Part shown: piece after piece, positions 964 to 61,682 of the stretch
Position numbering within the stretch: the first letter of the stretch is position 1
How the letters are laid out: the number at the start of each line of letters is the position of its first letter
Assembly: GCA_003510435.1 (NCBI GenBank)
Contig: DOMK01000010.1
Coordinates: forward strand, 41,487-105,486
Origin: Candidatus Magasanikiibacteriota bacterium
GTDB taxonomy: Bacteria > Patescibacteriota > Patescibacteriia > Magasanikbacterales > UBA922
Reading direction: 5' to 3'
Length of the DNA stretch: 64,000 bases
The notes under the pieces: generated by a model
Told to the model about the DNA's origin: nothing
What the model saw: only the letters and a program-made list of their open reading frames with translations
Databases searched by the model: none
Made by a program: the position numbers and the translations under genes

Positions 964-1313
964 AAATCCAAGGGAGGAGGGCAGTGAAACGATTATCACT
1001 GCCCAAGCCTCTGGCGGGGGACCTTCCCGCCCGTTGTCGTCAACTACCGCTCGCGCAATAGTCAACAAACGTTTGTCGCTTGTCTGCCCCGACAGGATGT
1101 CGAGGAGCGATGGGTCCGGTGTCTGACTCCGAGGAGGTCCACGGCAGCGCATCACCAGCCTGGCCTGGGCTTGGTGACACGCGTTGGTGTCTCGGAGTCT
1201 CTGAGTTGGAGAACTCTGTGAAGCGTGTCGTTGCCGATGTGCTTCAATACCTTGTGGTCCCCGCTCGGGTAGTGGCTTCGGTCCGTCTCTGGACCTGGCC
1301 TTACCCTTCTTCG

Positions 1314-1671
1314 CTACCGAGCGGGCTCGTCCGGGGGGTTGTCGCCCTCCACTTCGTCGACGTCGCTCCCGCCTGCGCCGTCTCCGGGGTTGTCCTCGGG
1401 GGTGACGAGGAACTCGGTTCCTTCCGGGAAGCAGTTCCCGGGGAAGAAGCGAGGCTCCATTCCCTTGCGCCCGATCGCGAAGTAGATACGTCCCCCGTCG
1501 ACTTCGACCCACGTGGTGCCACAGATGGCACCGAAGGCGGCCTTGGCCTTGCACGTGGCCGAGTACTTGAGGGACCAGTCCCCGTCGAGCAGGTTCAGGC
1601 GGAACCTACCCATCACACTTCCGACCTGGTCGAATTCCGTTTCCTCTTGGAGGACTTTCGCTCCGATCTCC
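1314..1671 (-). CDS. hypothetical protein (~119 aa) in GC-rich island; foreign-type codon usage
   Basis: ORF with very high GC3 (GAC/GTC/TTC/AAG codons); GAGGGAG SD 6 nt before the ATG at 1671 (track start GTG 1697 is also possible); own promoter upstream; no family recognised. Confidence 0.5.
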
Positions 1672-1723
1672 ATTCGGATCTCCCTCAATGCTACCACTTG
1701 TGAGTAGCGTTTCTATTGCACCA

Positions 1724-6291: not shown

Positions 6292-6837
6292 ATGAAAGGA
6301 CCAATTTTAAAAGGACCAAGAGTAACTTTGCGTCCAATGAAAGTTAGTGATGCGCCAAATTATGTGCGTTGGTTTAAGGATAAAGAAGTAATGAAATATT
6401 TTAATAATAACGTGTGGGGAATTAGTTTGGAAAAAGAAAAAAGCGCTATTAGATCTTTGCAAAGAAAAGTAAATAGTTTAAATTGGGCTGTAGAAGTGGA
6501 TGGATATCACATTGGTGGTACAGGAATAGTTTTGGATAAAAAGGCTGGTACAGGACGTTGGGGCATAGTGATTGGCGAAAAAAAAGAGTGGGGGAAAGGT
6601 TATGCTGTTGAAATTATTTATCTGTGTGCAGATTATTTTTTCAAAAAATTAAAAGGTGAAAGATTTGATTTAATGGTTGAAATGAAAAACGAAAAAGCTT
6701 TAAAAGCTTATAAAAAAGCTGGTTTTAAATTGGAAGGTGTAATGAGAAGTGCTGGTTATAATCCAAGGTTGAAAAAGAGAATAGATTCTGGTGTTATGAG
6801 TATTCTCCGTTCAGAATGGTTAAAATATAAAAAATAA
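6292..6837 (+). CDS. GNAT family N-acetyltransferase
   Basis: 181 aa; acetyl-CoA binding-like segment (GIVIGEKKEWGKGYA); RimL-like. Confidence 0.7.
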   Translation: MKGPILKGPRVTLRPMKVSDAPNYVRWFKDKEVMKYFNNNVWGISLEKEKSAIRSLQRKVNSLNWAVEVDGYHIGGTGIVLDKKAGTGRWGIVIGEKKEWGKGYAVEIIYLCADYFFKKLKGERFDLMVEMKNEKALKAYKKAGFKLEGVMRSAGYNPRLKKRIDSGVMSILRSEWLKYKK

Positions 6838-11361: not shown

Positions 11362-11883
11362 TTATAGCAAGAATTGTTTTAAATCAATACTGTGTTTTTT
11401 AGCAATCGCTTCTATCATATTTATGAGTATTTTGCTGGCAGTGGTAGCATCCCTACCTTCAAGAGCTCTTTTTTCGGCTTGAACATATAAATTTTCTATC
11501 ATATTAGCATCTGGAATTGCATTTATTTTTCGTAAAATGATAAGTAAAGGATCAATAACAGTTATTTTTATATCCACACTCAATCCTACAGAGTTTTCTA
11601 CACTAACTGTAACTCGTTTTTTTAATTCTGGTGGGGAATCTTTTTCTGGTTGTTGTGTGGTGCTAGGTAAATCAGGTACTGTATAGTGGTCAGGTTTTGT
11701 ATTAGCGTTTGGTACAGTAGCATTTGCTACTGTTTTATCTGGTCTTTCAGCCTCTACTATCTTTGTAGGCTCTTCAGCCTTAAGGTCTTCACATGTTGGC
11801 CATCTTACATTATCGTATCGGCTTTTTTCTGCTGAAGGTTTTTCACTACCAAAAATTGTTCTAAAAGAAAATGGCATAATCAA
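11362..11883 (-). CDS. hypothetical protein
   Basis: 173 aa ORF co-oriented and adjacent to the 643 aa gene. Confidence 0.4.
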   Translation of the reverse strand: MIMPFSFRTIFGSEKPSAEKSRYDNVRWPTCEDLKAEEPTKIVEAERPDKTVANATVPNANTKPDHYTVPDLPSTTQQPEKDSPPELKKRVTVSVENSVGLSVDIKITVIDPLLIILRKINAIPDANMIENLYVQAEKRALEGRDATTASKILINMIEAIAKKHSIDLKQFLL

Positions 11884-38458: not shown

Positions 38459-38546
38459 AGCTTACAATGCCAACAAGGCTTACTAGGGCTTACCAGGCTT
38501 TGTTAGCATTGTGAGCTTTGCAAGCCTTGTAAGCTTTGCAATTATA
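38459..38546. repeat. repeat family E (GCTTACAAGGCTTAC / AAGCCTTGTAAGC)
   Basis: Copies at 814-853, 1795-1832, 38459-38546, 40044-40113, each just upstream of a gene start. Confidence 0.6.
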
Positions 38547-40039: not shown

Positions 40040-40183
40040 ATAAAATGCTTATAATGCTTACGAGGCTCACTAGGCTTGGGTAAGCCTTGTCTGCCTTGTC
40101 GGCTTTGTTAGCCTTTATTTTGAAGTATCTAAAAACGGCCTTGAGCCGATTTAGTAATAATATACTAGATTAGCGTGATTTTG

Positions 40184-40966
40184 TCAAGTAATTGCAGTGG
40201 ATAAAACAGGGTCATATAATTTTGCTTGTCTCCATAATAATTCAAAATGTTCTAAATATCCTTTGGCAATGGCTTTATTTTGTATTTGAATGATGGTTAC
40301 ATCATTACTACCGGTGTATATCTCAATAGTTACCATTTCTGGAGTAATACGAGTGTAAGTAGGAGAGGATAGCCCCACTGTCATGGTTTTTAAAATATTG
40401 CCTTTTTCTTTAGCAAATTTATTTTTAAATTCTTCTGAATAATCAGCCGGTGAAATTAAATATTTAGATACCCGATTATCTTCTAAATACTTTACGTAGT
40501 TTTTATAAAGATTACCAATTACTCGATAAAAATCTATATCTTTGGCACCGCCAATAATACGCATAATGCCATCAGTTTTGGAAGCTGAACTAACCACATC
40601 TTTTAAATTATCAAAAAATCCTTTTTGTCCGTAAAAAGTTTTTACTTCAATTTTATCTATCGCTTCAATTTGTAATTTGACTAAATTTGGCAAAATTTTT
40701 CTAATTTGAGCCTCTTTATCTTCCAAAGTTTTTAGTAAAATTGAAGGTGAAGCTGCTTGAAAATATTTGCGATTGTTTTTGATTACATAAGAAACTAGAT
40801 TTTTATCTTCTAGCCTTTCTAGAGCTTCATAAACCAGCTGGCGATGAAGTTTAGTATTGGTAACAATTGGGCCCACATTTGTTGAGCCTAATTTAAGAAG
40901 TTCCAAGTATGTTTTAGCTTCGTTGGTATTTAATCCTATTTTCTCGAGGGTAGAAAGTATTTCCAT
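40184..40966 (-). CDS. TrmB-family transcriptional regulator
   Basis: N-terminal wHTH LSTLEKIGLNTNEAKTYLELLKLG. Confidence 0.6.
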   Translation of the reverse strand: MEILSTLEKIGLNTNEAKTYLELLKLGSTNVGPIVTNTKLHRQLVYEALERLEDKNLVSYVIKNNRKYFQAASPSILLKTLEDKEAQIRKILPNLVKLQIEAIDKIEVKTFYGQKGFFDNLKDVVSSASKTDGIMRIIGGAKDIDFYRVIGNLYKNYVKYLEDNRVSKYLISPADYSEEFKNKFAKEKGNILKTMTVGLSSPTYTRITPEMVTIEIYTGSNDVTIIQIQNKAIAKGYLEHFELLWRQAKLYDPVLSTAIT

Positions 40967-41042
40967 ATGTTCCTATTATAGCATAAAAGTTATATTTTGT
41001 CAAGATTTGATGACAATAATATTTTTCTGTCATCAAAAAAAC

Positions 41043-41071
41043 TTGACAATATTATAAATTTATGATATAGT
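41043..41071 (+). promoter_or_regulatory. sigma70-like promoter of the higher-GC methyltransferase gene
   Basis: TTGACA-N17-TATAGT; overlapped by a nested palindrome. Confidence 0.55.
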
Positions 41072-41154
41072 CATTTATTACACTAAGGATGAACAAGTTC
41101 ATCTAAAGTGTATAGGTGTTGCTGTTTACAATTCACAAAGAGAAGGAGAAGAAG

Positions 41155-41955
41155 ATGCTAGAGTCTACTCAGAGAACCTATTCGTGTATGAGGAGAGAAA
41201 TTATTCGCAACCCTAGTTTGATTTATTGGGCCTTGCAAATGATTTTGCAAGAACTCGAGTTGTCCTGGGAAGACAGAGTATTTGTCCATCAAGAATTTTT
41301 GAATATCCTGCAGCGTGAGGTGCTGGAGGAAAAGGCGGCGCGAGAAGTCTGGGACATTGTTTGTCCACACCAGGCAGTTTTGAAGGAAAAACTGCAGAAG
41401 AGAGCCTTGCTGATTTATTCCCAAGTAGAGTACTATCTCAGGAAGGGAAAAATTCTTGACTTTGGTTGTGGCGATGGACGCGTTGGTCAGCTAGTGGCTG
41501 ACAACACGGCTCAACAAGTCTGCTTGTATGATGTGGCAGACTACAGGAGAAGTTCTGTGCGTGATGCAAACCTGCCTTTCTTCTCAGATTGGCAAGAGGT
41601 TGGAGCCCAGCAGTTTGACACTGTCATGTCACTGTTGGTTTTCCACCATTCTGAAGACCCAGATCAGGAAGTATCCAGGTTGAGTAAGGTTTGTCAGAGA
41701 TTGGTGGTAATTGAATCGGTCATTGACGATTCAATTGTGCCCTGGTCAGCCCAAGCAACCATTGATTGGATTTATAATCGTGGTTTTCATCCTGGGGCCA
41801 TGGTTCCGGTGCCAGGGCAGTTCCGTACGTCACAAGATTGGTTAGAGACTTTCTGTCGTCATGGTTTTTCCCTAGTCGATAGTCAGGACCTTGGCATTGA
41901 TTTGCCAATTGTTCCTGAACATCATTGGCTGTTTGTTCTGGACCGTGAGGTTTAG
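41155..41955 (+). CDS. class I SAM-dependent methyltransferase (higher-GC gene)
   Basis: ILDFGCGDGRVG SAM-binding motif; GAAGGAG SD; about 47% GC versus about 30% in the flanks. Confidence 0.6.
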   Translation: MLESTQRTYSCMRREIIRNPSLIYWALQMILQELELSWEDRVFVHQEFLNILQREVLEEKAAREVWDIVCPHQAVLKEKLQKRALLIYSQVEYYLRKGKILDFGCGDGRVGQLVADNTAQQVCLYDVADYRRSSVRDANLPFFSDWQEVGAQQFDTVMSLLVFHHSEDPDQEVSRLSKVCQRLVVIESVIDDSIVPWSAQATIDWIYNRGFHPGAMVPVPGQFRTSQDWLETFCRHGFSLVDSQDLGIDLPIVPEHHWLFVLDREV

Positions 41956-44541: not shown

Positions 44542-44570
44542 TTGACAAAAGCATTTTTTTGTGGTATAAT
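44542..44570 (+). promoter_or_regulatory. sigma70 promoter of GC-island gene b
   Basis: TTGACA-N17-TATAAT with TGN extended -10. Confidence 0.6.
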
Positions 44571-44636
44571 ACTCGGTCCTGAAAATGGGCAATTGTTACA
44601 GAATGGAACGAACCTTACAACTCATTGGAGGGCGCT

Positions 44637-46187
44637 ATGAACTGGTTGAAGAAAGAGATCAACCGTATGGTGAGCGAAGGCGGCTGGAGCATTGGCGCTC
44701 TGGTAGTCGCTCTGGTGGCGTTCGCTGCCACCGTATTGTGCACCTCGCTCGTGGCAGGTGTGCAGATCGCTCGGGCCGTAGCCTATCTTGGCGGGCCCTT
44801 GCTCGTTCTCGCCTTTATGGCGGTGTACGTTGCCTTTAGGAAACTGCCTTGGAAAAAGGCTGTTCTCCTGCTGGTGTTGTACATCGCCGGACCTGTCGGC
44901 ACTCTGCTCGTGGCAGGTGCTGAGTTGGCAGAGATTGTGTCTCTGCTGACCCTGGGCACGGTCGTCGTCGTGGGGATCTTCCTCATGAGGAAACAACATC
45001 CTGTGATCGCCAAGGTCGTACTGTTTGGAACGGCGTGGGCGGTTGTAATGTGGAACGTCCCGCCGGAATATGAGGGCTGGGCTTGGTGGGTCACTCAGAT
45101 CCTCCTGGTCATCGTGGCTCACGGGTTGGCTCGGGCTTTCCTGTTGCCCTGGCTGGTCAAGTGGATTGAGATGGGTATCACCTGGTTCTTCGGAACCGAC
45201 AAGATGCTCAAGACTCGTCCGTATCTTCGGACGGTCCTCGATCTGATCCTACTCGCGATTGCTATCCTGTTTCTCAGCTGGGTCGTAGGGGGACGATTCC
45301 CCCAGGTCGCGACATGGATTGCTCGGGCTGCTCTAATTACCCTGGCCTATCCCATTAGGCTGGCATATAAGTGGGAGCCGGCGATCACTCGGCTCGTGGC
45401 TGGGTTTGCTGCCATCCTGGTCGCTACGTCGTATCTCGTGGACGACTCGTGGGCCACGAACCCAGTTGAGTCTTTGGTCATGGCCTTTGCGCTTTTCCTG
45501 TTCTGGTTGGAAGTGGTAAAACCGCGCCTCAAGGTGTGGGAGTACTACTCCCGGAACAACTGGGAGAAGCCTCTCTTGGTGGCTGGGATTATCATGGTGG
45601 TCGGCTGTGGAGTCAACTACATGGTAATTCATCTCTGGAACAACATGTGGTTCACCCAGGAGAATGGGTGGAGAATCCCAGAGTTGTTCTGGAAGGCCCC
45701 CGAGGTCGTAGAGATGATAGGGGAAAAGAAAGTGATGATCGTCCCGATGGGTTGGCTTAGAGCCACGCGGGTCGTCCCTATGCTCATCCTTGGCCTGGCT
45801 GTGGGTCTGGCCAACCACGGCAAACTTCCAAAGTACAAGAAAGAAGAGCGCACTGGCCTCGCGTTCTTCATCGGTCTTGGTTTGGGGGTGGCGTTCTTGC
45901 TACTCTTGAAGACCGAGATTCAACTCTCCGTTCTCCTTGGAGCGGGGTTGTTCATAGGTTTCGGCTTAGCTCTCATCGTGGGGCCGTGGCGGTGGCTCGT
46001 CTGCGTGGCCTGTTCTTGGGCCATGACAGTGGGGATGCTTTCGTCCCCGGCCTATGCCGTTCGCGCTTTGCTGTGGGCTCTGCTAACGGCTGGCATGTCG
46101 GCCTGGGCTGCCGCTTTTGTTCGGCTGATCTGGGAGAAATCCTGGGAAATGGCCGGCAAAACCAAGGCTAAGAAAAAAGGCCACTAA
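44637..46187 (+). CDS. polytopic membrane protein (~14 TM) in GC-rich island
   Basis: High GC3 codon usage; GGAGGG SD 4 nt before ATG; Trp/Leu-rich TM helices; no family recognised. Confidence 0.55.
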   Translation: MNWLKKEINRMVSEGGWSIGALVVALVAFAATVLCTSLVAGVQIARAVAYLGGPLLVLAFMAVYVAFRKLPWKKAVLLLVLYIAGPVGTLLVAGAELAEIVSLLTLGTVVVVGIFLMRKQHPVIAKVVLFGTAWAVVMWNVPPEYEGWAWWVTQILLVIVAHGLARAFLLPWLVKWIEMGITWFFGTDKMLKTRPYLRTVLDLILLAIAILFLSWVVGGRFPQVATWIARAALITLAYPIRLAYKWEPAITRLVAGFAAILVATSYLVDDSWATNPVESLVMAFALFLFWLEVVKPRLKVWEYYSRNNWEKPLLVAGIIMVVGCGVNYMVIHLWNNMWFTQENGWRIPELFWKAPEVVEMIGEKKVMIVPMGWLRATRVVPMLILGLAVGLANHGKLPKYKKEERTGLAFFIGLGLGVAFLLLLKTEIQLSVLLGAGLFIGFGLALIVGPWRWLVCVACSWAMTVGMLSSPAYAVRALLWALLTAGMSAWAAAFVRLIWEKSWEMAGKTKAKKKGH

Positions 46188-46444
46188 CCCGCTAGCCAGT
46201 CGGTAAACACTGGTCGGGTCTATGATTGGACCCTTTCGTCTCCAACCGGGAGGCGAGAAAAGAGCGCAAGCTCAGATTGATTTCGTTCCAGACAGTCAAA
46301 TGTCTGATGGACGATGAAGAAATGGCAGGCCGTTGGCTCGAAACCCAACGTACCTGCCCTCCGTTTACTTACTAAATATTATTTTGGTGGGTGAACAGAG
46401 AATATAACACGATACAAAATACACATAGCAAAATACAAGAACTT

Positions 46445-46476
46445 CACCTCTACCTGTGCAAGGTGGAGGTTTTTTA
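46445..46476 (+). terminator. rho-independent terminator after island b
   Basis: CACCTCTACC..GGTGGAGGT hairpin followed by TTTTTT. Confidence 0.6.
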
Positions 46477-51379: not shown

Positions 51380-51516
51380 GGAATCCCTTGTGTTAAAATA
51401 TAATTGTTGGTTTGAACATAAATTTGGACGGAAATTTAACAAAAATAAAACGAAAATTAAATTATTATAGTAAATAGAGATAAGATTGAGATAATTGGAG
51501 ATAAAAAACAACAAAT

Positions 51517-51548
51517 AAAAATCTGCCGAAGAGGCAGATTTTTATTTT
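51517..51548. terminator. bidirectional terminator
   Basis: ATCTGCC-gaaga-GGCAGAT hairpin flanked by A-run and T-run. Confidence 0.65.
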
Positions 51549-51695
51549 CTGAATTATTATAATAATTTTATAATCATTCGGAATTTGGGCACTGAAACGC
51601 ACCCAGTGGCTTCCGGCCTTGGCCACTGGTTAAGGGTGGTTACAGCACGAACTAGAAGAAAGAGCGCGGGGATGGAACGGGGAGGAAGTAGCCAC

Positions 51696-52079
51696 CTAGC
51701 CGAGCAGGAGCTGCGTGAGCGCCTCGATCATGGGGATAGGCTTCTCCATGGAGTAGCCCTTCTCCCGATCCCACGAGTGGAACCGATCCTCGACGGAGTG
51801 GTCCGGGCCGTTCGAGCACGGCACGAACATCCCCATCCCCACATCCTCGACCTTGAAGCCGAAGGACACGAGGAAGTCCTGGACGAGACGTCCCGTCTCG
51901 TAGTCGCCCCGGAGGAAGGGGCAACCACCAGTGATGTAGCCGAACAGCCACGCGCGACTGTCGGCCTCGCCTACGACGTCGGTCGGGGTCTCGACCAGGC
52001 TCTTGGCCCGGCCGGTCGACGTCGGCCGAATGGCCAGCGTCCCATTGTTCATGCACACGGTGAAATCGCACGGCCTCAT
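51696..52079 (-). CDS. hypothetical protein (~128 aa) in GC-rich island
   Basis: High GC3 ORF MRPCDFTVCMNNG...; AGGTGA SD 4 nt upstream; consensus promoter; no family recognised. Confidence 0.5.
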   Translation of the reverse strand: MRPCDFTVCMNNGTLAIRPTSTGRAKSLVETPTDVVGEADSRAWLFGYITGGCPFLRGDYETGRLVQDFLVSFGFKVEDVGMGMFVPCSNGPDHSVEDRFHSWDREKGYSMEKPIPMIEALTQLLLG

Positions 52080-52137
52080 CTGATCACCTGATGTGGTTCG
52101 ACGTCCAGTATGGTCCCCGACCATCTGGAACAATACT

Positions 52138-52165
52138 TTATACCATAAAAAAACCAGCCTGTCAA
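52138..52165 (-). promoter_or_regulatory. sigma70 promoter of GC-island gene c
   Basis: Minus-sense TTGACA-N17-TATAAA with TGG extended -10. Confidence 0.55.
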
Positions 52166-52195
52166 GAGGACGGTCTGTTTATTGGCTAAAATAAG

Positions 52196-53104
52196 CTAGA
52201 ATTTCATCTCTACTATTCTATCTAATCCAGCTAAATCTTTGTGAATAGTTGTTTTGGCTTGGGGAAGATATTTTTTTATAAGTTGTTTGATGGTTTTGGT
52301 TTGGCGAGGATCTATTTCAATAAAAAGGAGTAAGGAGTAAGGAGTAAGCCTGCCTGCGCAGGCAGGGAGTAATTGACGAATTTGTTTAAAAAGTTTTTCG
52401 TAGAGTTCGTGGCCGTTTTTGCCAGCAACGAGAGCTGATTTTGGTTCGTGCTGAATAGATGATTCAGATTTGAATTGTTGTGGTGTGAGGTAGGGGAGGT
52501 TGGCGGTGATAATGATTGATGAATAATGATTGATGAATGATGAATTAAGAATTGGTGAGAGAAGATCGCCGTGGAGGAATTTTATTTTTACGTTGTGTAA
52601 TTTTGCATTACGGCGAGCGACAGATAATGCTGGTTTGGAAATATCGATAGCGAATGATTTAAAGATTGAATGATTTAAAGATTGAATAATTGAAATTGGT
52701 ATACAACCAGTTCCAGTGCCAACGTCAATCATAATAATCTTCGAATCTTTCAATCTTTCAATTTCGTCGAGCACCAGCGAGACCATCAATTCCGTATCTG
52801 GTCTTGGTATGAGAGTATATTTATTTACAATAAAATCCAAACCATAAAATTCTTTATGACCAGTGAGATAGGCTAGAGGAATACCTTGAACGCGTTTTTT
52901 AATTAATTTATTAATTGTATTTTGTTGTGTGTATGTTGTATTTTGTTCGGGGTGGGCAAGTACAAACTCACGTGGTTTTTTTAACACGTGGGCAATAATT
53001 AATTCTGCATCTAAAATTGGCAGATTATTTTTTTGTGCTAATTGTAGAAGTTGTTGAATAGTTTGGAGCATGGAATTCAAATAAATATAAATCCACATAA
53101 CCAT
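52196..53104 (-). CDS. prmC: release factor glutamine N5-methyltransferase PrmC/HemK
   Basis: DVGTGTGCI SAM motif, NLPY (NPPY-type) motif; start may be the internal MLQTIQQ (53071); contains an in-frame repeat insertion. Confidence 0.8.
   Translation of the reverse strand: MVMWIYIYLNSMLQTIQQLLQLAQKNNLPILDAELIIAHVLKKPREFVLAHPEQNTTYTQQNTINKLIKKRVQGIPLAYLTGHKEFYGLDFIVNKYTLIPRPDTELMVSLVLDEIERLKDSKIIMIDVGTGTGCIPISIIQSLNHSIFKSFAIDISKPALSVARRNAKLHNVKIKFLHGDLLSPILNSSFINHYSSIIITANLPYLTPQQFKSESSIQHEPKSALVAGKNGHELYEKLFKQIRQLLPACAGRLTPYSLLLFIEIDPRQTKTIKQLIKKYLPQAKTTIHKDLAGLDRIVEMKF
52325..52372. repeat. GGAGTAAGG x3 plus GCCTGCCTGCGCAGGCAGG hairpin repeat inside prmC coding sequence
   Basis: The same GCCTGCCTGCGCAGGCAGG unit occurs at 6263-6284; related hairpins at 6196-6212, 24343-24360, 26849-26868, 50037-50066, 62417-62438; AAGGAGTAAGGAATAA copies at 15146-15175, 49885-49915, 62440-62470. 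Confidence 0.7.
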
Positions 53105-54566
53105 TGGCTCTCTGTTTATGTTCTAGAGTCCAGCCATGTTCAACAAAAATTTGGTGCATCCAATCAAAATTATCAGTATATTGGATATAAAAAATTTTGT
53201 CAGCGGTTTTTAAATATTGCTCTAGCCACTTGGTTAGTTCAGGTTTGTCAGTGATTTGTTGATTCCAGTTATAGCGGACAATTCTTTCTTCTAGACTAAA
53301 ATTATCTTCCCGTAAATATATACCAACAATTGGCCGTTGGCCATGATAATATTTTTGTAATGGTAAAACCTCGTTGAATGGTGTAATAATAGTAAAACTA
53401 TTTTTAGTTTCGTTTGTTTCTATATAATTGATTAATTTTGTCCAGGAAAAAATACCAGAATTTGACACGGTGTAAGCCCCAGGAGTAATTAATAATATTA
53501 TAAAGATGATAATGGCATAAAATATTTTTGTGTTTTTAACTGCTCGAGAAACACTATAACCAAGTATAATATACAAAGGAAGAGAAGATATTACATAAAA
53601 TTTGGTGACAAAGACTCCTATGATTGATCCGGAAAAAATAAGTAAAAAAGCCCAAAGCTGTAAAAAAATTAAAAGCCTTTTTTGTTTAAGATCTGTTTCG
53701 TTTTTGGTTTTTAAAATTGTAAAAACAATTGCGCCAATTAAAATTATTCCAAAAGTAGTAAAGACAAAAGGTGTTAAGTCTTCATTCATGAAAATACTTA
53801 CCAATAAGGTGAGAACATTGGCATAGGCCGTAGTGACTGGCCTAAAATACCAAGCACTAAGACTATTTTGGTTTAATTTTGAGAGTAGAGAGGGGACAAA
53901 CCAAATTAACCAGCTGGCACCAATTAAAACATGACCAAAAAACCAATATCTAAATTCTTTTTTTTCTACATTTAATAAAAATAATGATAAAAATTGCGTT
54001 ACAAAGATGGACAGAGCGGTGAGATGAGAATAGATTAGGAGTAAATTTATAAAAAAGTAAATTAACCAAACACTAAGTTTATTTTTTCCATTAAAAAAGA
54101 TTTGATAAAATAAGAAATAAGATAGAAGCGTTAAGAAAATCATTAAACTATAGACCCTAGCTTCACTGTTTATAAAAATGTGCACTCCAGAGAGAGTAAG
54201 AGTCAAACTACTTATAATGGCAGCTTTTTTATTAATTATTTTATAAGTAAAGTAATACAAGAGGACGATTGTGGCAAGACCTAAAATAGTAGACGGTAAT
54301 CTAATTAAAAGTTCATTATTAATTCCCACGATTGATGTCCAACCGCGTAAAAATAAAGTATAGAGTGGTGGATTGGTTTCTAGGGTCCAGTATTTTATGG
54401 CATCAGCCCAGGGTAAATTGGCAAAGTGGACACTAAACATTTCATCAAACCAAAAAGTGTCTCTAAGTAGTAAAAGATGAAGACGAAGAAATGAGGCAAA
54501 AATAAAAATTAGGTATAGAGGTAACCACTCTTTTAAATGAGTAATAATTTTATTCTGCTTCAGCAT
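53025..54566 (-). CDS. GT-C family glycosyltransferase (ArnT/PMT-like)
   Basis: 513 aa, ~12 TM; first-loop FDEMFS DE-type motif. Confidence 0.5.
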
Positions 54567-60677: not shown

Positions 60678-61682
60678 TTATGGCAAGTTCATTGGGATTG
60701 TGTCCCCATATTTAGGAGAAGCTTTGTTTAATAATTTTTGAAAATCATTCCAAGAACTGCATGCTTTCATTAGAAAAATTATATTATCAAGATGTTTTTT
60801 TAATTCTGGACTACCAAATTTAGGTGTTAGATACTGGTGATGTTTTCTTGCCCTTCGGCCTGATGGTAACACAATATTTATTTCTTTAAGTTTTTTAAGT
60901 ACGCCAGGTGCTAGACGTCTATATACTATATCATTTGTCCAATGCCCTATGTAACTAGGTTTATTCTTTGTGGCAAGTGGATAAGTCATTCCTTTTAATC
61001 TAAATAAATGTTTATAGAAATCGTCAGGAAAAGTTTTTGTCCATTTAGCCCACTCATCAGTGATATACTTTTCTAAGATTGCTTGTAAAGCTTCACGATC
61101 GCGTATATCTTGATAGCCTGTTGCTTCGTCTACCAATGCAATAATACCTACTCGAGCAAAACCGCGAACCAAAATTTCTGCTTTTTTTGCAATTTCTAAA
61201 TCTTTTTCATTATTTAAAACTTTAGCTTCGCGTGCCTTTAACCAAACGTCACAGATTTCTGGCAACAGTGTTGCTGGTACTCCATATGCTGTACGTCCAC
61301 CGTGAAGCGGTTTAAATTCAATTGGAGAAAAACCTTCTGTAGACATTTTTGATGGAATATAAGGTTTTAATGTTTTTTTAGATAAAAAAGGTGGTAAATT
61401 AGAGGTACTGTCGGAATTCCATTTTTGACTCTTTCCAAGAGCTTTGCTAACCCCACGATATGATAACACACGAGTTCCGTCTTCAAGTACTGAAGCTTCA
61501 ATAGTTAATTCACCAATATTTATTGAACCATCATGTGTGGCACGAAGAATTTTTTTCCATCGCACATTAGCTGCATCTTGTGCAATTTGTTTTCTTTTTT
61601 GTGGAGTTAATATTTGTGCTCTAGCATAACCACCCTGTGCTTTGTTTTCGTCGTATTCTTGTTTTTTTTCCTTTGTACTCAT
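60678..61682 (-). CDS. P63C domain protein (phage-derived)
   Basis: GFARVGIIALVDEATGYQDIRDREALQAILEKY ... FPDDFY core typical of P63C. Confidence 0.6.
   Translation of the reverse strand: MSTKEKKQEYDENKAQGGYARAQILTPQKRKQIAQDAANVRWKKILRATHDGSINIGELTIEASVLEDGTRVLSYRGVSKALGKSQKWNSDSTSNLPPFLSKKTLKPYIPSKMSTEGFSPIEFKPLHGGRTAYGVPATLLPEICDVWLKAREAKVLNNEKDLEIAKKAEILVRGFARVGIIALVDEATGYQDIRDREALQAILEKYITDEWAKWTKTFPDDFYKHLFRLKGMTYPLATKNKPSYIGHWTNDIVYRRLAPGVLKKLKEINIVLPSGRRARKHHQYLTPKFGSPELKKHLDNIIFLMKACSSWNDFQKLLNKASPKYGDTIPMNLP

Follow-up and report, generated by a model that had tools for sequence, protein, structure and literature searches.

A GC-rich single-gene cassette, probably a moron-like accessory islet, in a strain-variable locus of Candidatus Magasanikbacteria

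Cassette c is a GC-rich block of about 540 bases (51586..52123, minus strand; ~63% GC, a GC excess of +27 points) in the window, by which we mean the whole 64 kb stretch of DNA analysed here, which is 36% GC overall. We hold with moderate confidence that it is a single-gene accessory islet of foreign composition, moron-like in kind, located in the strain-variable, recombination-prone DUF3048-prfA locus on the core chromosome of a groundwater Candidatus Magasanikbacteria (CPR) bacterium. On this explanation the cassette would be a self-contained unit, made up of a host-type extended -10 promoter abutting the GC-rich block, a 51-nt leader, a 127-aa ORF, a 121-nt tail and a terminator held in common with a neighbouring gene. 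The sigma-70-type polymerase of the host would transcribe the gene from ~52130, and read-through from prmC may add to this transcription. The product would be a small, acidic, cytoplasmic protein. For most of its evolution the gene would have been subject to a GC-rich regime, in some unsampled donor or reservoir. Its entry into the locus would have been through illegitimate recombination, or through homologous exchange of the flanks, in the course of flexible-island turnover among Magasanikbacteria. As to function, a strain-specific, single-protein accessory role such as immunity, defence or host interaction might be tentatively suggested.

The islet, its expression signals and its locus

Composition profiles place change-points at ~51586 and ~52123, and the block between them takes in the 5' UTR, the coding sequence and the 3' tail, reaching from approximately the predicted transcription start to just short of the terminator. 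A sequence-only reading of this DNA had described a block of about 62% GC containing an ORF with near-exclusive G/C third positions, and measurement bears out both statements: the GC content is 62.8% across 51588-52100, with 1 kb flanks at 37% and 35%, and the ORF has GC1/2/3 values of 0.59/0.45/0.89, compared with GC3 values of 0.21-0.30 for host genes and 0.29 for the adjoining prmC. Exactly three high-GC3 ORFs are found in the window, and they define cassettes a (1314-1673, minus strand), b (44637-46187, plus strand) and c (51696-52079, minus strand). The core genes of the window comprise ftsH, a type IV pilus ATPase gene, thrS, miaA/miaB, pyrimidine biosynthesis genes, gatB, thyA, gyrB, ftsW, the L25 gene, prmC, prfA and an RNase J gene. 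The surroundings of cassette c are themselves core, with L25, FtsW, gyrB, prfA, L31 and secG alongside DUF3048 and prmC.

The same reading had claimed a TTGACA-N17-TATAAA promoter with a TGG extended -10, and this is present on the minus strand. Its -35 hexamer TTGACA (52160..52165) lies inside the loop and 3' arm of the prmC terminator hairpin, and a 17-nt spacer separates it from the extended -10 element (52137..52145), with TGG at 52145-52143 and TATAAA at 52142-52137. A census of near-consensus promoter sites (at least 11 of 12 matches) returned ten in the 64 kb window, the c site among them, against 3.6 +/- 2.3 in shuffles. The spacer is 17 nt long in nine of the ten and the TG extension occurs in eight, so the c promoter follows the host's own promoter grammar. 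A standard promoter scan missed the site, since it demands that the -10 element end in T, and here the element ends in A. The hairpin that overlaps the -35 hexamer (52147..52177, minus strand; predicted fold -14.6 kcal/mol) is terminator-like, with a U7 tract, and stands 3' of the prmC stop codon. As prmC and c lie on the same strand, prmC read-through could also transcribe c.

The predicted 5' UTR is a 51-nt leader (52080..52130, minus strand) that is predicted to form a hairpin, CCAGAUGGUC...GACCAUACUGG, at 52129-52104. It also contains the AGGTGA Shine-Dalgarno sequence that had been reported, at 52089-52084, 4 nt before the ATG. An alternative upstream ATG (52124-52122) gives a 142-aa product (P0001), as in some annotations. 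Behind the ORF lies a non-coding 3' tail of 121 nt and 57% GC (51575..51695, minus strand) with a hairpin, CCAGTGGC-N11-GCCACTGG, at 51603-51629; no conservation was found between this tail and that of the homologous cassette described below. The last element is a perfect 15-bp bidirectional intrinsic terminator (51513..51547), detected by terminator scan and as an inverted repeat, which is common to the convergent DUF3048 gene on the plus strand and to c on the minus strand. It is orthologous to positions 11424-11452 of a related locus (L010) and is thus part of the host flank. Viewed as an independent unit, cassette c has a near-consensus promoter and a strong terminator, but the terminator is shared with the DUF3048 gene and read-through from prmC is possible.

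Scanning GTDB genomes with the neighbouring DUF3048 protein yielded three syntenic loci (L010, L011 and L012), and the nearest GTDB loci are labelled Magasanikbacteria or Magasanikiibacteriota. Comparison with these three loci delimits a variable chromosomal segment at 51507..54544, and c is at the edge of this ~3 kb flexible segment. In L011, whose syntenic blocks are ~72% identical, the site is empty: just 83 nt, containing a single hairpin, lie between DUF3048 and prmC, compared with ~0.8 kb in the window. In L012, ~7 kb of other genes fill the DUF3048-prmC site. The closest relative, L010 (syntenic blocks ~87% identical, four-fold sites 60-69%), has at the c site a different GC-rich cassette on the opposite strand, which encodes a 188-aa protein whose N-terminus resembles a signal peptide and which has a GC-rich tail and its own terminator. 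The PMT_2 glycosyltransferase of the window is also replaced in L010, by a 196-aa protein that is class I methyltransferase-like by inspection. Cassette c shows two features of a horizontally acquired genomic islet, namely atypical composition and presence/absence polymorphism among relatives.

The PrmC of L010 is 63% identical to that of the window at the protein level, and the neighbouring DUF3048 and GyrB proteins are 86-95% identical. Since the prmC allele beside c is unusually divergent, the cassette may have come in with a larger stretch of flanking DNA, through homologous recombination from another Magasanikbacteria lineage. Horizontal gene transfer and genomic islands have been documented in groundwater Patescibacteria, mostly between Patescibacteria (PMC12455944). 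A search for reports of GC-rich islands in Magasanikbacteria, Parcubacteria or CPR bacteria returned general surveys of horizontal transfer and no specific report.

Turnover of this kind is seen elsewhere in the window. Cassette b is missing in L010, where an empty intergenic region of 225 bp contains one promoter, that of the downstream gene alone. In the window, where the site is filled, there are two promoters, and the extra one therefore appears to have arrived with the insert; the intergenic DNA in this filled-versus-empty alignment is too diverged for base-level junctions. A TrmB-like regulator and methyltransferase pair, probably the fourth cassette (d) of the sequence-only reading, is missing in L010 too. 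A Candidatus Magasanikbacteria MAG encodes a protein, HBU07015.1, with exactly the sequence of the b protein. That reading had proposed that single foreign genes were captured repeatedly and then fitted with host promoters. Repeated capture is supported in part, in that there are several single-gene units of foreign composition with a host-type promoter (a, b and c, and others in L010 and L011) and in that they turn over, b being missing from a genome ~87% identical and the c site being empty in L011 and swapped in L010. The later fitting of promoters finds no such support: besides the extra promoter that seems to have come with b, the promoter and terminator of cassette a are conserved with the cassette in a distant syntenic relative.

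Signs of an insertion mechanism were sought at several levels. At the c junctions no direct repeat was found, and a search for terminal inverted repeats or a target-site duplication gave weak AT-rich matches only (75% over 20 nt). The cassettes have no sequence in common at their ends. Genes for an integrase, a transposase or a reverse transcriptase were likewise missing from the 20 long window ORFs that were scanned and from the precomputed annotations of the neighbourhood. A transposable element or MITE passenger was considered and rejected, as terminal repeats and a target-site duplication are absent.

Phage morons are defined by a GC content unlike that of their neighbours, a promoter and terminator of their own and insertion relative to related genomes (PMC3594210). 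Like c, morons such as HK97 gene 15 (Cumby, Davidson and Maxwell 2012, PMC3594210) are single genes placed between genes that are adjacent in relatives, with a deviating GC content. They have a sigma-70-type promoter of their own, as is predicted for c, and end at a factor-independent terminator, as c also seems to do, and they often encode small proteins whose function is accessory or unknown. Cassette c is inserted between adjacent genes and deviates in composition. Unlike a moron, it resides in a core cellular chromosome (L25, DUF3048, prmC, prfA) rather than in a phage or prophage, and its terminator is common to a neighbouring host gene. No phage or viral relatives of the c cargo were found in PHROGs, phage records or viral contigs.

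The islets and flexible islands described for Patescibacteria/CPR bacteria (PMC12455944) resemble c in having strain-variable content between core genes and an atypical composition. Cassette c differs from them in its size, since one gene of ~0.54 kb is smaller than the islands of the usual predictors, in its extreme GC excess, and in belonging to orphan cargo families without a Pfam domain, whose relatives occur solely in equivalent GC-rich islets. Integron cassettes share with c a single-ORF modular build, a structured non-coding 3' region and the occupation of one site by different cassettes among relatives. In contrast to them, c has its own predicted promoter, and such cassettes occur singly and in either orientation rather than in arrays. 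An integron gene cassette was rejected on inspection of the 3' tail, which has no attC-like RYYYAAC/GTTRRRY core, and because there are no common cassette ends and no integrase gene among the 20 long ORFs and the annotated neighbourhood. Finally, variable islands harbour orphan immunity and defence genes, a general concept that c resembles: such genes stand singly, are small, evolve fast, show poor conservation, differ between strains and are expressed constitutively. Cassette c has no cognate toxin or PADLOC match, and a comparable function might tentatively be proposed for it.

Related GC-rich islets and the origin of their composition

The single homolog of c lies in a similar islet on L003/L004, of ~580 bp and 65% GC in a 35-42% GC genome. 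It is at a different locus from that in the window, upstream of ftsK. This islet has a TTGAAA-N17-TG-n-TATGGT promoter, a leader hairpin and a GGAGG Shine-Dalgarno sequence, and its 3' part consists of a 110-nt GC-rich tail followed by a host terminator. No donor of matching composition was identifiable among JGI metagenome contigs, viral contigs, phages and plasmids, and the sole c homolog is in an AT-rich genome, in an equivalent GC-rich islet.

Cassette a also has a single homolog (59% identity), on L005, in a GC-rich islet with ~31% GC flanks. The two copies are syntenic, between ftsH and the same membrane-protein gene, and cassette and flanks are equally diverged, at ~65% nucleotide identity. 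Identity at four-fold sites is 0.44 in the flank (0.38 expected) and 0.31 in the cassette (0.28 expected), which amounts to saturation, and the GC3 of the a cassettes is 0.82 in one genome and 0.63 in the other. Decay toward the host GC3 of ~0.27 alone would leave a four-fold identity of ~0.6, not 0.3, and on this rough relaxation argument most of the divergence between the a copies appears to have happened in a GC-rich regime. The non-coding tail of a is conserved as well, with eight compensatory base pairs.

The cassettes have a common format. Every island encloses exactly one complete ORF; leaders measure 28-90 nt and tails ~50-340 nt, and in c, a and b the end of the tail is close to a hairpin. 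In most cassettes the GC-rich block starts no more than ~10 nt from the -10 element and stops close to the terminator. Their GC3 ranges from 0.63 to 0.91. None of the seven proteins in the five cassette families matched Pfam at E up to 1; of 20 long host proteins, 17 did so at E values of 1e-5 or less.

Several of these observations count against a moron-like islet of foreign origin. No GC-rich donor was found, and the homologs of c and a are both GC-rich islets in AT-rich genomes. The a copies are syntenic and saturated at synonymous sites, yet retain GC3 values of 0.82 and 0.63, which does not fit a recent transfer followed by amelioration. The complete lack of Pfam matches in five families would be unusual for ordinary cellular donors, and there are no target-site duplications, terminal repeats, common ends, integrase genes or transposase genes to explain the insertion.

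The main rival, which we regard as possible though unlikely, is that c belongs to a long-resident class of accessory genes circulating among CPR bacteria, in which the GC-richness of the whole unit is actively maintained and is not a fading mark of import. The cause could be selection on the RNA or the DNA, or a GC-biased process. It is favoured by the synteny of a with its L005 counterpart, where flanks as diverged as the cassette and saturated four-fold sites accompany a persistently high GC3, and by a misannotation argument: antisense calls in four of six assemblies mean that CPR-resident copies are under-represented in protein databases, whereas copies in GC-rich genomes would be callable and none was seen. 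The confinement of the only homologs of c and a to GC-rich islets of other AT-rich genomes, the compensatory changes in the a tail and the way that block edges track the -10 element and the terminator in most cassettes all point in the same direction.

Set against this, we know of no mechanism that would hold GC3 at ~0.9 in one gene of a 36% GC genome, and the flanking genes in the same hot spot, such as prmC, are free of GC enrichment. Cassette turnover between genomes that are ~87% identical fits a recent gain, and the spread of GC3 across cassettes is what differing stages of amelioration would be expected to give. The order GC3 > GC1 > GC2, which c displays, is the product of long residence in a GC-rich genome. 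The argument for maintained GC is, in addition, drawn from two sequence pairs. We keep to a moron-like islet as the preferred explanation.

A more general proposal, which we think rather improbable, is that Magasanikbacteria, and perhaps other CPR bacteria, carry orphan single-gene units at ~1 per 20 kb that are GC-rich exactly over the transcribed region, persist for a long time and are exchanged only among AT-rich genomes. If this were true, there would be a force that keeps whole transcripts GC-rich, or else a capture mechanism (e.g. RNA-mediated, from a GC-rich host) that databases have missed through wrong-strand calls.

One form of such capture can be stated explicitly, and we consider it very improbable for c: the monocistronic mRNA of a GC-rich host or neighbour would have been reverse-transcribed and integrated downstream of an AT-rich promoter, in which case the GC-rich DNA would correspond to a 5' UTR, a coding sequence and a 3' UTR. 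In c, in b and in the L003 cassette, the predicted transcription start and the switch in composition do lie only a few nucleotides apart, and the format of one complete ORF with leader and hairpin-ended tail is what a captured transcript would leave. However, no reverse transcriptase is present among the 20 long window ORFs or the precomputed Pfam neighbourhood hits, a poly-A-like or template-jump scar is absent, and the promoter of the L010 cassette lies ~100 nt upstream, in AT-rich leader DNA. A simpler account is available for the coincidence of promoter and block edge. A sigma-70 promoter forms only in AT-rich DNA, and the nearest such DNA is at the edge of the island.

The encoded protein, the companion cassettes and the assembly

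The coding sequence of c (51696..52079, minus strand) specifies 127 aa, beginning MRPCDFTVCMNNG..., and ends in a stop codon at 51696-51698. The predicted protein is acidic (pI 4.9) and contains four Cys; neither a signal peptide nor a transmembrane segment is evident by inspection. A full HMMER scan of 1.8 billion representative proteins returned one true relative, P0002 (126 aa, 46% identity, E 3e-26), whose alignment with c is gapless from end to end over 125 residues and conserves Cys53 in a GCP motif and Cys88 in a VPCSNGP motif. By codon position, the nucleotide identity of the pair is 0.60/0.58/0.49, and at identical residues the third positions agree at chance level. With third positions at chance and positions 1 and 2 more conserved, the protein is under purifying selection and its synonymous sites are saturated. 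P0002 aligns from the 127-aa start, which favours this start over the 142-aa call.

An antisense ORF of 168 aa is annotated in four of the six assemblies that have a gene call over the island. This ORF is closed at the homologous locus on L003, and the c frame alone is open in both; a Shine-Dalgarno sequence and a start codon are present in c and in its homolog. Judged by GC3, the homolog and codon-position conservation, the c ORF is coding, and the comparison with P0002 shows a two-member orphan family under purifying selection.

The family was searched for widely, and the count stands at a single homolog among about 15 billion proteins. A word-index search of 5.8 billion clusters returned c itself and nothing else. 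A scan of metagenome contigs with the c/P0002 alignment gave no match, and no relatives of c were found in viral contigs, phage records, plasmids or JGI contigs. Two other candidates were discarded: a second HMMER match, to a PPR repeat, is spurious, and a degenerate GEADSRxWxFG pattern gave two chance motif matches in unrelated 54% GC contigs. The profile and structure search that had been recommended for the c protein matched no family, neither c nor P0002 having a match in Pfam, NCBIfam, PHROGs, PADLOC or the PDB at E up to 1-10. PDB, profile and family searches with four other cassette families, by single sequence and by profile, were equally without a match. AlphaFold2 runs on two-sequence alignments of c and of a reached a pLDDT of 35, too low for a fold comparison to carry meaning.

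Structured RNAs are often what GC-rich islands in AT-rich genomes are, and the block could in principle be a structured ncRNA whose ORF is a by-product of GC-rich, stop-poor sequence. The block contains three overlapping ORFs of at least 139 aa, its 3' region folds well (z = -5.2) and the tail of cassette a shows covariation. We nevertheless give this reading hardly any weight. The three-base periodicity is strong (GC3 0.89 against GC2 0.45), and the conservation between c and its homolog is at the protein level, in the one frame that is open in both. The fold z-score is due to the terminator hairpin, and the non-coding tails of the two cassettes are unconserved. Rfam's one match in the window at the gathering threshold is a tRNA that lies elsewhere; with the limit relaxed to E 10, matches fall on the terminator, besides one weak, chance-level match in the coding sequence (E 0.96).

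It had also been asked whether a, b and c act together, as one functional system of two soluble proteins and one membrane protein. An unusual composition and strong promoters are indeed common to all three in one genome. The genes, however, are scattered over as much as 50 kb, and the closest relative lacks both b and c. Aligning the profiles of c and a with hhalign gave a probability of 0.1%, so that these proteins appear unrelated. The homologs of c (on L003) and of a (on L005) are each solitary on their own contig. The suggested check for co-occurrence was made by tblastn across the fetched loci, where no further homologs of a, b or c were found and none co-occur. A shared system is, on these grounds, extremely improbable.

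A chimeric assembly or contamination, in which the fragment of a GC-rich organism was mis-joined into a CPR contig, can be set aside despite the abrupt switch in composition within a metagenome-assembled genome: the island sequence is identical wherever it was assembled, by several assemblers, host DNA collinear with related genomes lies on both sides, a host-type promoter and terminator adjoin the block, and similar islets occur in unrelated projects (L003, L005, L010 and L011). The insert is real and not an artefact of one assembly. prmC is joined to the island in contigs of six read sets (JGI 3300009031 and SRR2177951, -53, -54, -56 and -86), and four contigs that include the island sequence match the window at 100% identity over one junction or both. 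Two long contigs and L001 span both junctions, and several groundwater assemblies of PRJNA292723, as well as JGI 3300009031, carry the identical sequence. No strain polymorphism was seen in the source population, as every contig with the exact PrmC that runs past prmC has the island. The sequence-only reading had said that it would be undone by homologs absent everywhere together with evidence of a chimeric assembly. The search for homologs came close to the former, with one homolog that shows purifying selection, and of a chimera there was no sign.

Significance for CPR bacteria

CPR bacteria rely on other cells and have very small genomes, so the few genes that vary between their strains probably mark dealings with hosts, phages and competitors. 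Cassette c indicates that such variable genes can take the form of solitary orphan units equipped with a promoter, which standard gene callers annotate wrongly, as the antisense calls over the island illustrate. Misannotation of this sort would leave such units largely invisible in protein databases. If the GC-richness does persist in AT-rich genomes, or if the donor is the physical host of the symbiont, these units may provide a handle on whom CPR bacteria live on, and also on how DNA taken up for its nucleotides becomes genes.

Further GC-rich genes and variable loci

Island b, a GC-rich single-gene islet in the window (44542-46475), carries a perfect consensus promoter (TTGACA-N17-TGn-TATAAT) ahead of a gene with a GC3 of 0.71. 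The encoded 516-aa protein is an orphan, with no homolog among the 5.8 billion clusters searched, and is hydrophobic (GRAVY 0.82) and probably membrane-spanning. On its 3' side lies a GC-rich tail of 180 nt with a hairpin at its end, followed by a terminator. The island is missing from L010, the closest relative locus, and two other syntenic loci, L011 and L012, leave no room for it.

L011, which comes from a different Magasanikbacteria genome, carries another islet of this single-gene, GC-rich form immediately downstream of tsf (L011 19566-20375). The gene in this islet (GC3 0.82) encodes a hydrophobic product of 235-252 aa, probably a membrane protein, that had no match in Pfam.

L010 also lacks an entire gene pair present at 40184-41955 of the window, in which a TrmB-like regulator (minus strand) and a class I methyltransferase (plus strand, 47% GC) diverge from a back-to-back pair of consensus promoters (41003 and 41043). 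Elsewhere, Pfam annotation identifies a P63C-domain protein gene (60678-61682, minus strand) surrounded by core genes; the P63C domain is phage-associated.

Non-coding tail and repeat elements

The GC-rich non-coding tail of cassette a, 330 nt in length (975-1313, minus strand), is conserved with the tail of its homolog on L005 (1085-1410), the locus holding the only homolog of this cassette. When folded, the tail forms a series of hairpins with eight compensatory base-pair changes. The tail had no match in Rfam and may be a structured 3' UTR or a small RNA.

Cassette a is bracketed by arrays of GCTTACAAR with a 9-bp period (18 matches observed against 0.5 expected). These lie at 815-849, 1797-1879, 38460-38543 and 40047-40112 of the window and at 6498-6530 and 11360-11395 of L010, where they adjoin the empty b site and the cassette at the c site. 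The arrays are intergenic and frequently form inverted pairs; they could be small mobile repeats or an array of protein-binding sites.

Within prmC, an in-frame insert (52322-52370) combines three copies of GGAGTAA with a palindrome, CCTGCCTGCGCAGGCAGG. A CATCTGA repeat occupies the equivalent position in L010 (12575-12610), and the arms of the prmC palindrome recur in an intergenic region of L003 (1650-1700), the locus with the sole homolog of cassette c. The insert resembles a repetitive or palindromic element that integrates within coding sequence.

Wrong-strand gene calls

In four public assemblies, island c is annotated with an antisense ORF of 168 or 139 aa (51585-52091, plus strand in the window), and the real gene is not annotated. 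GC-rich islets within AT-rich genomes are systematically mis-annotated in this way, and the wrong-strand calls keep the families of these islets hidden from protein databases.
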